Positions 35,273 to 38,484 of a DNA stretch of 60,219 nucleotides are shown here, piece after piece. How positions within the stretch are numbered: the stretch's first letter is position 1; each line of letters begins with the position of its first letter. The notes below the pieces were generated by a model that was not told the origin of the DNA, ran no database searches, and saw only the letters and a list, made by a program, of their open reading frames with translations. A program made the translations under genes and the position numbers. Origin of the DNA: an uncultured Candidatus Saccharibacteria bacterium (GTDB lineage: Bacteria > Patescibacteriota > Saccharimonadia > Saccharimonadales > UBA10212); the NCBI GenBank assembly GCA_964400155.1, contig CAYNSQ010000004.1, positions 1 to 60,219 on the forward strand, written 5' to 3'.

Positions 35273-36729
35273 CTATTTTGACGTCGGAACTGTTTTTTCT
35301 GCTTTTGGAAAAAGCGAACCATCAAGCGGTTTTAAGACTCCCGTTTCAAATATATCTCGAATCTTACCTGCAGTATCAGGCATAAATGGATATAGAAGTG
35401 TTGCGACCTCAATCAAACAACCCACCATATAAGCAAGTACTTCTCTTAAATGATTTTCATCTTTAGACTTAGCTATCTCCCATGGTTTTGTTTCATCAAT
35501 ATATTGGTTGAGGCCTCTTACCTGTTCCCAAATTTGTTCTACTGCTTTATCAAAACGAAAATCAGCCATTGAAGCTTGAAACGGTGCAATATCATGCCCC
35601 GGTGTGGGAATGTCACCAATAAAACCATCCTGATATTTAGCTATCATGGCAGCCGTACGCGAAACAGCGTTGCCTAACTGGTCAGCAAGTTCGGTATTGT
35701 ATGCTTTCTCAAGTTTTTCCCAGCTAAAGTCGCCATCTTCATATGATGGTATGTGACGGGTAAAGTAGTACCGAAAAACATCAGCACTGTATTTATTCAC
35801 TATATCTACTGGTGCAACCACATTACCAAGTGTTTTGCTCATTTTTTGGTTATCAACATTGATAAAACCATGTACAAACAATGACTTTGGTAGTGGCAGA
35901 CCAAGACCAAGCAGCATTCCTGGCCATATGGCAGCATGAAAACGTGATATGTCTTTACCTATTACCTGCACACTGGCAGGCCAATAATTCTTGAAGTCAT
36001 CATGTTCTGGGTAGCCAAGCACGGTAATGTAATTCATCAGTGCCTCAAACCATACATACATCACTTGAGTTTCATCCCCAGGAACAGCAATACCCCAAGC
36101 AATCTTTTCTTTAGGCCTGCTAATACTAATGTCCTCTAGGCCGGAATTCACTACTGCTAATACTTCGTTTAGTCTTGATTGTGGCACCACTCTTAACTGG
36201 TTGGTTGTTAGCGCTTGTTTTATTTGTTCGTTAAATGCTGAAAGTTTGAAAAAGTAATTTTCTTCTTCAAGTTTTTCATATGGCCGGTTATGTGCCGGGC
36301 AAATACCTTTGTTCTCTTTTACAACTTCTTCAGGAAAATAAGCTTCATCACCAACACAATACCAACCGCTATATTTGCCTTTATAAATATATTTTGCAAG
36401 ATTGGTCCAAATGACTTGGGCTCTTTGTTCATGAGCTTTGTCTGTGGTTCTGATAAAACGGTCGTTGCTAATGTTGAGGGTCTTTAAGAGTTCTGAGAAC
36501 GTAGCACTCATTTTATCGGCAAATTGTTGTGGAGTCAGGCCAGCTTCTTCTGCTTTTTCGGCAATTTTACCACCATGTTCATCTGTACCGGTACAATAGA
36601 CTACCCTTTTTTTACACTCCCAGCATAGCGTGCTAGCACGTCAGCATAGACAAGCTCCATACCAAACCCAATATGTGGTGTGCTATTCACATATGGAATA
36701 GACGTAGTTACATAATATTTTTCTTCCAT
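35273..36729 (-). CDS. metG: Methionine--tRNA ligase interrupted by a 1-nt frameshift at about 36604-36613
   Basis: ATG 36729 gives MEEKYYVTTSIPYVNSTPHIGF (HIGH-like) and stops at TAG 36601-36603; the -1 frame continues VVYCTGTDEHG into ORF 35273..36511 (KMSKT). Confidence 0.9.
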
Positions 36730-36757: not shown

Positions 36758-36928
36758 TTAAAAATAGTCATTCACTTTAATTGCAACCCAAACTCCAAAC
36801 AAGCCACCGATTAATCCGCCTAAAATACTCCACCCAGATAGAAAATTATTATCGCCCCAAAGAGTTGGAATATAAGAACCTATTGTACCGAAAATAAAAA
36901 CTAATAAATAAACTAAACTTTTGGTCAT
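36758..36928 (-). CDS. 56-aa membrane protein absent from the ORF track
   Basis: Hand translation: MTKSLVYLLVFIFGTIGSYIPTLWGDNNFLSGWSILGGLIGGLFGVWVAIKVNDYF*; TATACT box upstream. Confidence 0.7.
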   Translation of the reverse strand: MTKSLVYLLVFIFGTIGSYIPTLWGDNNFLSGWSILGGLIGGLFGVWVAIKVNDYF

Positions 36929-36986
36929 TTACTACACTAGTATAACTAAAAAAGAAAAGAGAGGGAGGCAATCAAAAGGTGCGGTT

Positions 36987-37018
36987 GCCCCGCACCTACT
37001 ATGAAGTAGGTGCGGGGC
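36987..37018 (-). terminator. Perfect 14-bp GC-rich hairpin downstream of the 81-aa ORF
   Basis: GCCCCGCACCTACT-ATGA-AGTAGGTGCGGGGC. Confidence 0.75.
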
Positions 37019-37029
37019 TTGAGCAGGTG

Positions 37030-37275
37030 TTACTCCACAAAGTGGCTCCCGCCAAACCCGCCGTGGGCGGGCGTTGAAGTCAGAGCCAGCTCACGCTGGT
37101 GTGTGCATGCTGCGAGAAGGTCATCGGTCAGACCGGCGCGCTCGAGCATCCTGTCGATGCACTGCGTGCTGAATCCGCACATCGACAGCTCTGCTACCCA
37201 CCTGCGGTAGCCAGCGACATCGCCTTCCTGAAGGCAGCTGATGGCCTCATCAGCCATTTCGTGTGGACCCTGCAT
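37030..37275 (-). CDS. 81-aa hypothetical helical protein (MQGPHEMADEAISCLQEGD...)
   Basis: Strong SD AAGGGAGG 9 nt before ATG 37275; hairpin after the stop; visibly GC-richer than its flanks. Confidence 0.55.
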   Translation of the reverse strand: MQGPHEMADEAISCLQEGDVAGYRRWVAELSMCGFSTQCIDRMLERAGLTDDLLAACTHQRELALTSTPAHGGFGGSHFVE

Positions 37276-37588
37276 TGGCCTATTGCCTCCCTTGTTGTTT
37301 GTCCGGTGCGGGATTGCACCTGGACTATGTGCTTGGGGGATAACCCATAACTCCCTTACTAGAAGCCATCGGTTTTGCGACCCCATTGCTAGGTTTTTGT
37401 TTTTGGTGCTTATTGAAAAACCTAGCAATCGAGCAACAAAAAACCGAACGCTGCTTGCTGCTTGTTCGTCCGGTTGGTCTTGTCTAAATTTTTTGATTTA
37501 TAGCGCTTGGACTAATTAAGCAGCGGTAGCTCGTGGGACGAGCATAATGCTTGCAAAATTAATTGTGCGCTTACAAACCATGAATACT

Positions 37589-37617
37589 TTTATACACCTG
37601 CACGCTTGCAGATGCAA
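37589..37617 (-). promoter_or_regulatory. Sigma70-type promoter for the 36.96-37.58 kb transcript
   Basis: TTGCAT (37617-37612), 17-nt spacer, TATAAA (37594-37589). Confidence 0.55.
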
Positions 37618-37638: not shown

Positions 37639-38484
37639 TTAACGTGTCCTTGGAGTCCCAAACTCTTCATCACCAAGCAGGTGTTTTGATAAGTGTGCAA
37701 CACCCATAAGTGCTTTGCTCCTCAGGGTGAAGGCTTCCCTTTCAGCTCTCAATCGAAGATCATAGTCCACGTCTTTATTTTGAAAATGCCTCAAACATTC
37801 CCAGCTTACTTTCTCTAAGGCTGAAGCAAACAAAACTTGAGGCAAAATACTACTATCATTAGCTGAGTTCTCTTTACGCACCTTGGCATTGAACGACTTC
37901 ATAAATGGTTGGTTAGTCAACCAACCAACCAACCTTAATTTAGCTTGGAGTGATTCACCACCAGATTGAAACCAATCTCTAACAAGCTCCTCTTCAAAAT
38001 CTAAAGAAATAAGAATATCTTCCGTTTTTTCATTCTGTCCGGATTTAATTTCCGATATTGTATGCACCTCTCCTAGATCAATAAGGTCATCAATGCTAAT
38101 CGGTTGTAAGTACTTTGCACCATGGTGCTTTTGGTTAAGAGCAAGTCTGTGTAAATAAAGACTAGCGGTGCTAGAAAAATGACCCGCCGTTAATTCGTGA
38201 AGTGCTTCTGTCTTCTTCCTATCTACACCTTGTACCGCTATAACTTGCAGAGCGTTTTCTAAAAATTCAATTTCTGCTTTTTGTGTGTTTCTAATTTCAT
38301 AAATTAGTCTTGCATCAATACCAAAGGGTACATCTATCACTGCTTCTTTAAGTTCAATATGTGCATCCTCTAAGGAATCATCGGGAGTTGTTGCCCCGGA
38401 TCTCATACCCAAGGGTACATCAGGATCAACCCAGGTAAAATCATCCGTAGAACTATCTTTTCCAGACACTTCCTTTTTACTCAT
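37639..38484 (-). CDS. Hypothetical protein
   Basis: 281-aa ORF, TGnTAGAAT 6 nt before the ATG; no family recognised. Confidence 0.65.
   Translation of the reverse strand: MSKKEVSGKDSSTDDFTWVDPDVPLGMRSGATTPDDSLEDAHIELKEAVIDVPFGIDARLIYEIRNTQKAEIEFLENALQVIAVQGVDRKKTEALHELTAGHFSSTASLYLHRLALNQKHHGAKYLQPISIDDLIDLGEVHTISEIKSGQNEKTEDILISLDFEEELVRDWFQSGGESLQAKLRLVGWLTNQPFMKSFNAKVRKENSANDSSILPQVLFASALEKVSWECLRHFQNKDVDYDLRLRAEREAFTLRSKALMGVAHLSKHLLGDEEFGTPRTR

Follow-up and report, generated by a model that had tools for sequence, protein, structure and literature searches.

We analysed a 60,219-nucleotide (nt) stretch of DNA from an uncultured Candidatus Saccharibacteria bacterium (contig CAYNSQ010000004.1 of assembly GCA_964400155.1; hereafter the window), in which a small minus-strand transcription unit at 36955–37617 had been predicted from the letters alone to carry an 81-amino-acid (aa) open reading frame (ORF) on a messenger RNA (mRNA) whose 3' tail is an exact 11-nt complement of its own Shine-Dalgarno (SD) sequence. 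Comparison with relatives indicates that this 11-base match is one copy of a control region that occurs across a whole Saccharibacteria family and surrounds small GC-rich genes, here called the cargo. In this lineage of the candidate phyla radiation (CPR) the region forms a conserved RNA frame with two switches, inside which small genes are exchanged. Its mechanisms are of known kinds; what is new is their combination, a conservation that is independent of the cargo, and the behaviour of the cargo itself. The explanation we favour, with a probability of roughly 0.6, is that a family-specific cis-regulatory frame acts in two steps on a slot for small GC-rich genes, first by ribosome-mediated attenuation in the leader and then by a fold-back of the 3' end onto the SD like those of icaR and hok; all statements about function made below are predictions.

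The frame consists, in order, of a promoter, a mini-ORF, an A-rich spacer, an intrinsic terminator (T1), a hairpin (H2), further helices, a purine box, the cargo, a GC hairpin and a pyrimidine box (coordinates in the window are given in Table 1). Across loci the cargo block holds one to three ORFs in 350–800 nt with 50–70% GC, and the purine box is the first SD in most of them. A very stable GC hairpin precedes the pyrimidine box at a median distance of 1.5 nt (the 70 nt upstream of the box average -35 kcal/mol). In most loci the box is followed by a gene that encodes a small membrane protein of two helices and has a -10 box of its own near the start codon. In what follows G-numbers denote relatives' genomes, L-numbers their loci and X-numbers sequencing runs. 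An initial DNA search of relatives matched the leader in several genera and did not match the ORF; in G001, which is of the same genus and has the same neighbouring genes, the promoter, leader and SD are conserved, and a different ORF is followed by a hairpin and CTTGCCTCCCT, which complements the SD of G001 itself (AGGGAGGCAAG). A covariance model of the leader, with the -10 box as its start, finds one copy each in 41 of the 49 genomes of this family, which represent 23 of its 28 genera. In an order-level scan the model matched 15 of 17 family members and none of 284 genomes of other (sister) families, and within its own 839-kb genome the window element is present once. Exact-string scans for close relatives returned only the record of G001, and 80 loci anchored on metG gave no leader match within their 3-kb flanks, since an extra trehalase-like gene displaces the leader out of that range. 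In most Saccharibacteria of genera other than that of the window (L047 and many of L048–L126), this gene (motif YYWDSYF) separates metG from the locus or from the place where it would be, so the synteny with metG seen in the window is not general.

The original prediction described a leader of about 300 nt, and that length is present, but the leader is not plain: it contains a conserved leaderless mini-ORF, an intrinsic terminator and a covarying hairpin. Its promoter layout, TTGCAa-17-TATAAa, recurs in G001, G026, G025, G034 and G005, and positions 37460–37283 are 80% identical to G001, with the hairpins of this part present in the predicted fold. In the covariance-model alignment 91% of the cells in leader helices are paired and 20 of 23 pairs show double changes. 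The covariation score is 0.343; shuffles give 0.128, with none of 500 as high, and slid-partner controls give 0.06–0.08. This alignment was fitted to the covariance model and hence leans towards structure. H2 has 15 pairs, of which 14 are changed on both sides, with about 96–98% of cells paired and many U-G and G-U pairs, and the same analysis supports helices 1–2, which form a hairpin inside the mini-ORF. The leader tolerates insertions, with about 125 nt between T1 and H2 in G002 (L005, about 1370–1495) and about 100 nt in the H2 loop of G025 (L009), and several genomes (G010, G013, G015) have a second H2-like hairpin 150–300 nt downstream (model positions about 151–209).

It is the comparison of relatives, and not the 11-nt match itself, that leads us to judge the pairing between the SD and the 3' box real. 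An exact inverted repeat of this length is by itself at chance level: the window holds 34 inverted pairs of at least 11 nt within 800 nt, and about a dozen of these are as distant as the SD/3'-box pair, with a rough expectation of about 11. When the SD window of each locus was compared by RNAduplex with everything downstream, the best partner picked automatically lay, in 17 of 27 loci, where the GC content falls immediately behind the terminal hairpin, and inspection by eye adds nine loci where the script had chosen the wrong SD or site. Boxes defined by composition only, as the strongest purine run of the leader and the strongest pyrimidine run further downstream, have a pairing energy of -18 kcal/mol or lower in about 22 of 28 loci, and cognate SD/downstream pairs surpass non-cognate ones in a permutation test (p 5e-5 by energy and 1e-3 by helix length). 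An earlier cognate test based on zones was set aside because its definition of the 3' zone missed the box in several loci, and the whole-downstream test was used in its place; a pair count on box alignments registered at the inner end of the helix was likewise not used, since columns that are defined by the helix make it circular. The pairing of a 3'-terminal box with the SD region of its own putative mRNA, as first proposed for the window, is thus conserved and covaries in about 24–26 of 28 related loci. In the window a C/U-rich motif past the stop codon complements the SD as it does in icaR, and the related loci have equivalent pairs.

The boxes change together. The window pairs AGGGAGGCAAU with AUUGCCUCCCU, G001 differs from it by a compensatory change (SD AGGGAGGCAAG with CUUGCCUCCCU), and G006 has a wholly different complementary pair, GGAAAGAGAGAGG with CCUCUCUCUUUCC (DNA CCTCTCTCTTTCC). 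Further pairs are GGAGUGG with CCACUCC in G025 (DNA GGAGTGG/CCACTCC), GAGAAGGGAGGAGC with GCTCCTCCCTTCT in G032 and a helix of about 19 base pairs (bp) in G067, the range among loci being 9–19 bp. Complementarity reaches past the SD core into lineage-specific flanks, such as CAAU/AUUG, GUGG/CCAC, GAAAGAGAG/CUCUCUUUC and GAGCGC/GCGCUC.

Minimum free energy (MFE) folds of full-length locus RNAs contain the box helix in 14 of 17 loci. Folded as the original prediction had suggested, the 628-nt window RNA has an MFE of -266.4 kcal/mol (z = -7.35), and its MFE and centroid structures alike include the helix. When its last 21 nt are removed the helix is lost, the MFE rises to -255.4 kcal/mol and the centroid leaves the AAGGGAGGCAAU stretch essentially unpaired. 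The helix is worth about 11 kcal/mol to the fold, and the mean unpaired probability of the purine box is 0.12 with the 3' box and 0.52 without it. By prediction and comparison, then, the full-length mRNA would sequester its SD through pairing of its 5' and 3' parts. A run of five or more U within the 8 nt after the helix is found in only 5 of 24 loci, the window included, so helix and tail are not a general terminator, and a general role as a long-range intrinsic terminator was rejected for this reason.

The second covarying element lies at the other end of the leader. An open frame of 16–27 codons, with the family consensus MVxxRxFTNWSIILVKRDxAVVW before its stop, is present in 30 of 30 loci and is conserved at the peptide level, from which we take it to be translated. 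Its ATG lies 7 nt after the -10 box, which makes it leaderless. Some 17 residues are conserved over the whole peptide, with (F/W)(S/N)IILV(K/R)(R/K)D as the core, and no curated leader-peptide family in NCBIfam matches it. Conservation of the whole peptide, as opposed to a run of one codon, suggests a signal for nascent-peptide arrest, and in its sequence the mini-ORF seems to resemble an arrest peptide more than an amino-acid sensor. In all 30 loci a hairpin with a U-run (T1) follows at a distance of 49–83 nt from the mini-ORF stop. The 5' arm and loop of T1 can pair with the final codons of the mini-ORF and its stop, in a predicted helix of 12–14 bp in about 20 of 30 loci (for example GCUGUAGUUUGGUA with AACCGGACUACAGC and CUGCAGUUGUGUA with ACACGACUGCAG), and this pairing is stronger between cognate than between non-cognate partners (-17.8 vs -13.4 kcal/mol; permutation p 5e-5). 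The leader thus has the make-up of a leader-peptide attenuator, a short ORF before an intrinsic terminator together with a predicted antiterminator that excludes it.

What the frame encloses varies. The 31 cargo ORFs have GC contents at the three codon positions (GC1/GC2/GC3) of 0.67/0.46/0.71, with GC3 above GC2 in 30 of them; the values are 0.67/0.50/0.70 in the 81-aa ORF of the window and 0.53/0.36/0.31 in neighbouring genes. The cargo ORFs truly code for protein, in a codon usage foreign to the genome. As had been noted for the window, the region is GC-richer than its flanks (0.59–0.62 over 36950–37324, about 0.32–0.40 outside). The cargo proteins are 49–173 aa long, are not hydrophobic and belong to several unrelated small families that are patchy across genera; even within one genus, three genomes carry different cargo. 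Every cargo ORF that has an SD is encoded on the sense strand, and no inverted state was seen. The 81-aa protein, already described as something other than a hydrophobic peptide, is indeed polar, and AlphaFold2 predicts a soluble N-terminal helical bundle (pLDDT about 90 over residues 1–50) and a disordered tail with HGGFGGSHF. It has six small homologues at 38–48% identity, no Pfam match and nothing meaningful by Foldseek against the PDB (best E 2.3); a word-based protein search returned the query alone, and two long HMMER matches (P0002, P0003) were discarded as tandem-repeat artefacts. We note that in many loci the C-termini of otherwise unrelated last-cargo proteins share a motif resembling R/Y-x-G-F-(A/V), as in RAGFAA, RYGFAS, RYGFVD, SYGFGRF, RMGFADVVV, CGFAEVGAW and HGGFGGS.F (HGGFGGSHFVE at 37033–37065 in the window), which could be a common signal or a constraint imposed by the RNA just before the terminal hairpin.

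Exchange of the cargo can be seen between close relatives. Contigs from other metagenomes include a relative whose leader is 99% identical to that of the window (3 differences over 37283–37599) and whose downstream genes are 90–93% identical. Its match to the window breaks off precisely where the boxes have their inner edges, at 37283 and 36971, and between these two points the sequences are unrelated. The cargo has been replaced, and the borders of the replacement are the inner box edges. The box sequences are unchanged in this relative with its different cargo, and by eye they appear to track the host genus and not the cargo family. No recombinase, integrase or transposase was found among the ORFs within about 3 kb (33.3–41 kb of the window; profiles, partly by eye), and the genome, which is 95% complete, has no reverse transcriptase (RVT_1) match, for which reason a retron or diversity-generating retroelement was rejected. 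Since no recombinase is nearby, no reverse transcriptase is present and the boxes stay with the frame, we interpret the replacement as an exchange of alleles through recombination within the conserved flanks; this would be expected to leave sharp borders, because the boxes are the last constrained positions. In the relative seen in runs X5–X7, sequence upstream of 37599 cannot be aligned at 80% despite the 99% identical leader, so the 281-aa acidic protein encoded there (37639–38484, minus strand) evolves fast or is itself replaced. This protein has no Pfam match; its C-terminal LxWLGWLTxQPFM is also found in the upstream gene of G005 and, loosely, in G001 and G002.

The favoured two-step mechanism can be laid out as follows. 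A constitutive-looking promoter would start the leaderless mini-ORF, and a ribosome that reaches the mini-ORF stop would cover the antiterminator strand, leaving T1 free to form and to stop transcription about 140 nt into the RNA. Were the ribosome instead stalled earlier on the conserved peptide (core SIILV), or had it not loaded, the antiterminator would form and RNA polymerase would read on past the structured leader into the cargo. Once a full cargo mRNA had been made, the pyrimidine box behind the terminal hairpin would pair with the purine box with which the leader ends. In most genomes, that of the window included, this clamp would hide the SD of the first cargo gene and limit translation to a burst, or delay it until the 3' end is processed; the duplex could be a target of RNase III or could shield the mRNA ends. 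We infer that one RNA carries both the SD and the 3' box, and the direction of regulation and any part played by a ribonuclease are put forward on the same footing.

Several observations weigh against this mechanism. The box helix is almost purely Watson-Crick, with 321 Watson-Crick and 14 G-U pairs when read on the sense strand and 340 and 39 on the antisense strand. Assigning its strand from wobble pairs was therefore rejected as uninformative, there being no sense preference, and RNA pairing is deduced, short of proof, from covariation without conservation; the sense strand was assigned from the promoter, from the sense-strand leader structure with its many G-U pairs and from sense-strand coding. 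In about 8 loci the purine box is not beside a credible start and the main ORF has its own SD 70–170 nt further on, so masking of the SD cannot be the sole role of the helix. It is a stem that closes the cargo region as a whole, and it covers the first SD in most genomes, that of the window among them. G029 is without box pairing. The antiterminator of the window itself is weak (7 bp, GCUGCUU:AAGCAGC, -11.7 kcal/mol). A weak, terminator-like alternative hairpin could also end some window transcripts inside the 3' box; it is the only exception to the absence of a canonical terminator between the 81-aa ORF and that box. Finally, the sole RNA run, X21, gave two short low-depth contigs that cover relatives' leaders only and span T1 and H2.

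One alternative is that the boxes act on DNA, as inverted repeats (recombination or inversion sites) that border an exchangeable cassette, with any RNA pairing incidental; the original prediction had allowed for something similar in treating the repeats as the ends of a mini-element. The part of that idea which holds is that the sequence between the boxes is exchanged among close relatives, with breakpoints exactly at 37283 and 36971 in the relative with the 99% identical leader, and different cargo in three genomes of one genus, a cargo GC3 of 0.71 against 0.31 and a helix that is nearly all Watson-Crick without strand bias all agree with it. The boxes, however, belong to the conserved frame. 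They appear to follow the host genus and are unchanged beside another cargo, and they covary freely in sequence and in length (9–19 bp), where sites recognised by a protein would be expected to be conserved. No transposase, recombinase or integrase is encoded within about 3 kb, and the genome has no reverse transcriptase. SD-bearing cargo ORFs are all on the sense strand with no inverted state, and homologous recombination in the conserved flanks explains the replacement equally well. We consider a DNA role of this kind unlikely. The pairing might alternatively be a by-product, the purine SD and a pyrimidine tract (a terminator tail or the -35 or upstream (UP) element of the next promoter) having been selected separately, or the helix and U-rich tail might form a long-range terminator. 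The window 11-mer at chance level fits such a reading, as do the U-rich tails of the window and four other loci and the fairly good pairing of non-cognate SD/3'-zone pairs (mean -20.4 vs -22.9 kcal/mol for cognate pairs), which is due to shared GGAGG/CCUCC cores. Cognate pairs are nevertheless significantly better (p 5e-5), their complementarity extends beyond those cores into lineage-specific flanks and the U-tract is confined to 5 of 24 loci, so that we hold a by-product to be very improbable.

Least probable, and in our opinion hardly tenable, is the type I toxin-antitoxin (TA) module first suspected here, in which the ORF would be a toxin silenced by the fold-back and by an antisense RNA starting near 36941–36946. 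A 3' end that folds back onto the SD is a hallmark of the hok and aapA1 mRNAs (PMC5416894), and the GC-rich, strongly structured mRNA body (z = -7.35) is what a stable inert message would have. The 81-aa product, however, lacks the small size (under about 60 aa) and the hydrophobicity of type I toxins; the structure predicted for it is a soluble helical bundle that ends in a disordered tail, and a toxin identity finds no backing in it; it has no Pfam match, no PADLOC or TA family search having been made. Cargo proteins of 49–173 aa from several unrelated families, one to three to a locus, do not fit a toxin either. The plus-strand TATAAC at 36941–36946, proposed as an antisense promoter, exists but is the complement of the -10 region (TATACT) of the downstream minus-strand gene; no promoter-like site was called on the plus strand, and nothing else indicates an antisense RNA. 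The locus is single-copy, vertically conserved and part of the family core genome, unlike typical multi-copy or mobile type I systems, and so is not a mobile TA-like module.

The favoured mechanism has precedents for each of its halves. In the leader-peptide attenuators of the trp, his, leu and ilv operons, of tnaC and of erm and cat leaders, the position of a ribosome decides termination by way of an alternative helix. The locus has the same short ORF before an intrinsic terminator and an alternative helix between the 3' part of the ORF and the 5' arm of the terminator; it differs from the classical cases in that its leader ORF is leaderless, in that the whole peptide is conserved and not a run of one regulatory codon, and in that the controlled genes encode small orphan proteins in an organism without amino-acid biosynthesis. 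For the 3' half, the C/U-rich anti-SD motif in the 3' untranslated region (UTR) of Staphylococcus aureus icaR mRNA pairs with its own SD, which keeps the initiation complex from forming and supplies RNase III with a substrate (Ruiz de los Mozos et al. 2013, PMC3868564), and by analogy icaR is the closest known system in mechanism. The locus shares with it a CCUCCC-like box and a helix (9–19 bp among the loci), and its genome encodes an RNase III (profile match of 220.6 bits, over the cut-off) that could cut the duplex. Unlike icaR, which is one gene with a long 3'-UTR in one genus, the frame is conserved across a family (at least 23 genera) while the enclosed genes change, its 3' box stands directly behind a strong hairpin, and a leader-peptide attenuator precedes it. 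In hok/Sok and aapA1/IsoA1 a long-distance 5'-3' interaction sequesters the SD in the full-length mRNA, and activation needs 3' processing (Arnion et al. 2017, PMC5416894); the predicted fold-back on the SD in the full-length locus RNA is similar, and the differences are the lack of a short hydrophobic toxin and of an indicated antisense antitoxin, the single-copy place in the family core and the variable cargo of up to 173 aa. The strongly translated Bacillus subtilis hbs mRNA, in which a 14-bp helix between the 5'- and 3'-UTR modulates the access of ribonucleases (Braun, Durand and Condon 2017, PMC5737220), is likewise comparable: its ORF is small and has a strong SD, its 5'-UTR is structured, and its long-range helix is of similar length. 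The hbs helix, however, overlaps an RNase Y site upstream of the SD, whereas the helix predicted here covers the SD itself. As in integron cassettes, a fixed promoter platform expresses promoterless exchangeable small ORFs of non-host base composition. The locus differs from integrons in having no integrase or recombinase-like ORF nearby, one to three ORFs, and flanking repeats that covary as an RNA helix; no attC-type sites were recognised, no dedicated attC search having been made.

To our knowledge, CPR bacteria, Saccharibacteria included, combine tiny genomes with few recognisable regulators, and hardly any regulatory RNAs have been described in them; a full-text literature search on Saccharibacteria RNA regulation and leader peptides gave nothing relevant among its top hits and no description of this locus. 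The favoured mechanism would give the CPR a family-wide leader-peptide attenuator built on a leaderless ORF, and a conserved bacterial clamp between 3' end and SD that outlasts replacement of the enclosed gene, making the RNA architecture and not the gene the selected unit. It would also supply a collection of small orphan proteins whose codon usage is strikingly foreign and which are marked as condition-specific, and the leader model would be a ready marker for cassette turnover in metagenomes. It is conceivable, though we think it doubtful, that the frame goes further and is an integrase-free expression slot for exchangeable small-protein genes, in which an arrest-peptide leader would sense translational stress, the helix would keep GC-rich cargo silent by default and stable, fast-turnover cargo, held at a foreign GC3 of about 0.7 and exchanged among nearly identical strains, would serve episymbiosis (host interaction, phage defence or dormancy), and the boxes would be at once an RNA clamp and fixed recombination borders.

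The promoter, SD, 81-aa ORF, 14-bp hairpin, 11-nt complement and U-rich tail of the original prediction were all found where it had placed them (Table 1).

Table 1. Features of the control region and its cargo in the window, in the order of transcription
Feature	Position	Strand	Remark
Promoter: -35 TTGCAT, 17-nt spacer, -10 TATAAA	37617–37612 (-35); 37594–37589 (-10)	minus	read from sequence
Leaderless mini-ORF, 21 codons and stop, peptide MVCKRTINFASIMLVPRATAA	37516–37581	minus	internal covarying hairpin
Intrinsic terminator T1: stem CCGGACG/CGUUCGG, large loop, U6	37438–37474	minus	
Hairpin H2 (GCUAGG...CCUAGC), loop motif AAGCACCAAA conserved	37373–37441	minus	inverted-repeat scan
Remaining structured leader: GGGG...CCCC helix, second AAGCAC motif, hairpin GUCCAGGUGC/GCACCGGAC before purine box	37293–37372	minus	
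5' purine box AGGGAGGCAAU (DNA AGGGAGGCAAT): SD region of 81-aa ORF and 5' strand of long-range helix	37282–37292	minus	
81-aa cargo ORF (family A), ATG at 37275, end at 37030	37030–37275	minus	
Terminal GC hairpin: perfect 14 bp, loop UCAU	36987–37018	minus	inverted-repeat scan
3' pyrimidine box AUUGCCUCCCU (DNA ATTGCCTCCCT): 3' strand of long-range helix	36962–36972	minus	
Pyrimidine/U-rich tail CUCUUUUCUUUUUU (DNA CTCTTTTCTTTTTT), directly after 3' box	36948–36961	minus	
Downstream neighbour: -10 TATACT (36944–36939) and 56-aa two-helix membrane protein gene (36928–36758)	36758–36944	minus	

The alternative hairpin mentioned above is an 8-bp structure at 36997–36977 (AGGUGCGG...CCGCACCU) built in part from the 3' arm of the 14-bp terminal hairpin, with UUUGAUUG (TTTGATTG) behind it; G001 is without a counterpart. 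A scan of Rfam 15 (E up to 1) gave only three chance matches of microRNA models on H2 (E 0.09–0.65, far below gathering scores), and ARAGORN found neither a tRNA nor a transfer-messenger RNA (tmRNA) at the locus; a tmRNA-like reading of GGGG...GACGG was dropped because it has no tRNA-like 3' end.

The locus lies among genes for cysteine desulfurase-like, TatD, MetG, small membrane, acidic and bPH/PNPOx proteins and a DEAD-box helicase (profiles, and motifs by eye). The 56-aa membrane protein gene has no SD, and in G000, G001, G002, G019, G014, G007, G068 and G069 a -10-like hexamer lies, by eye, 6–10 nt before its start, so it too looks leaderless; judged by its synteny with the frame across the family, it may be functionally linked to it. 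The metG gene is split into a 42-aa N-terminal ORF and a 412-aa ORF (36601–36729 and 35273–36511, minus strand) by an indel near 36621. Contigs of the same population in run X1 have an extra T behind 36621, and relatives in X5 and X6 an extra G behind 36622, so the frameshift is probably an assembly or consensus indel and not a broken gene.

One of the two leader contigs of run X21 starts at the -10 box. A 151-nt contig from this run (L005, 1501–1560) carries a relative's leader from T1 through H2 plus 13 nt and then runs into Illumina adapter AGATCGGAAGAGC. The run also includes a 77-kb contig, so DNA is likely present in it; the junction indicates short inserts that end at one position past H2, possibly a processed or terminated RNA end, at low depth and with DNA likely.

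The motif AAGCAC occurs twice in conserved single-stranded positions of the window leader, once in the H2 loop (AAGCACCAAA, 37400–37409) and once after the GGGG...CCCC helix (CCCCAAGCACA, 37310–37318). It is seen at the same places in relatives, and the repeated motif could serve as a binding site for a protein or another RNA.

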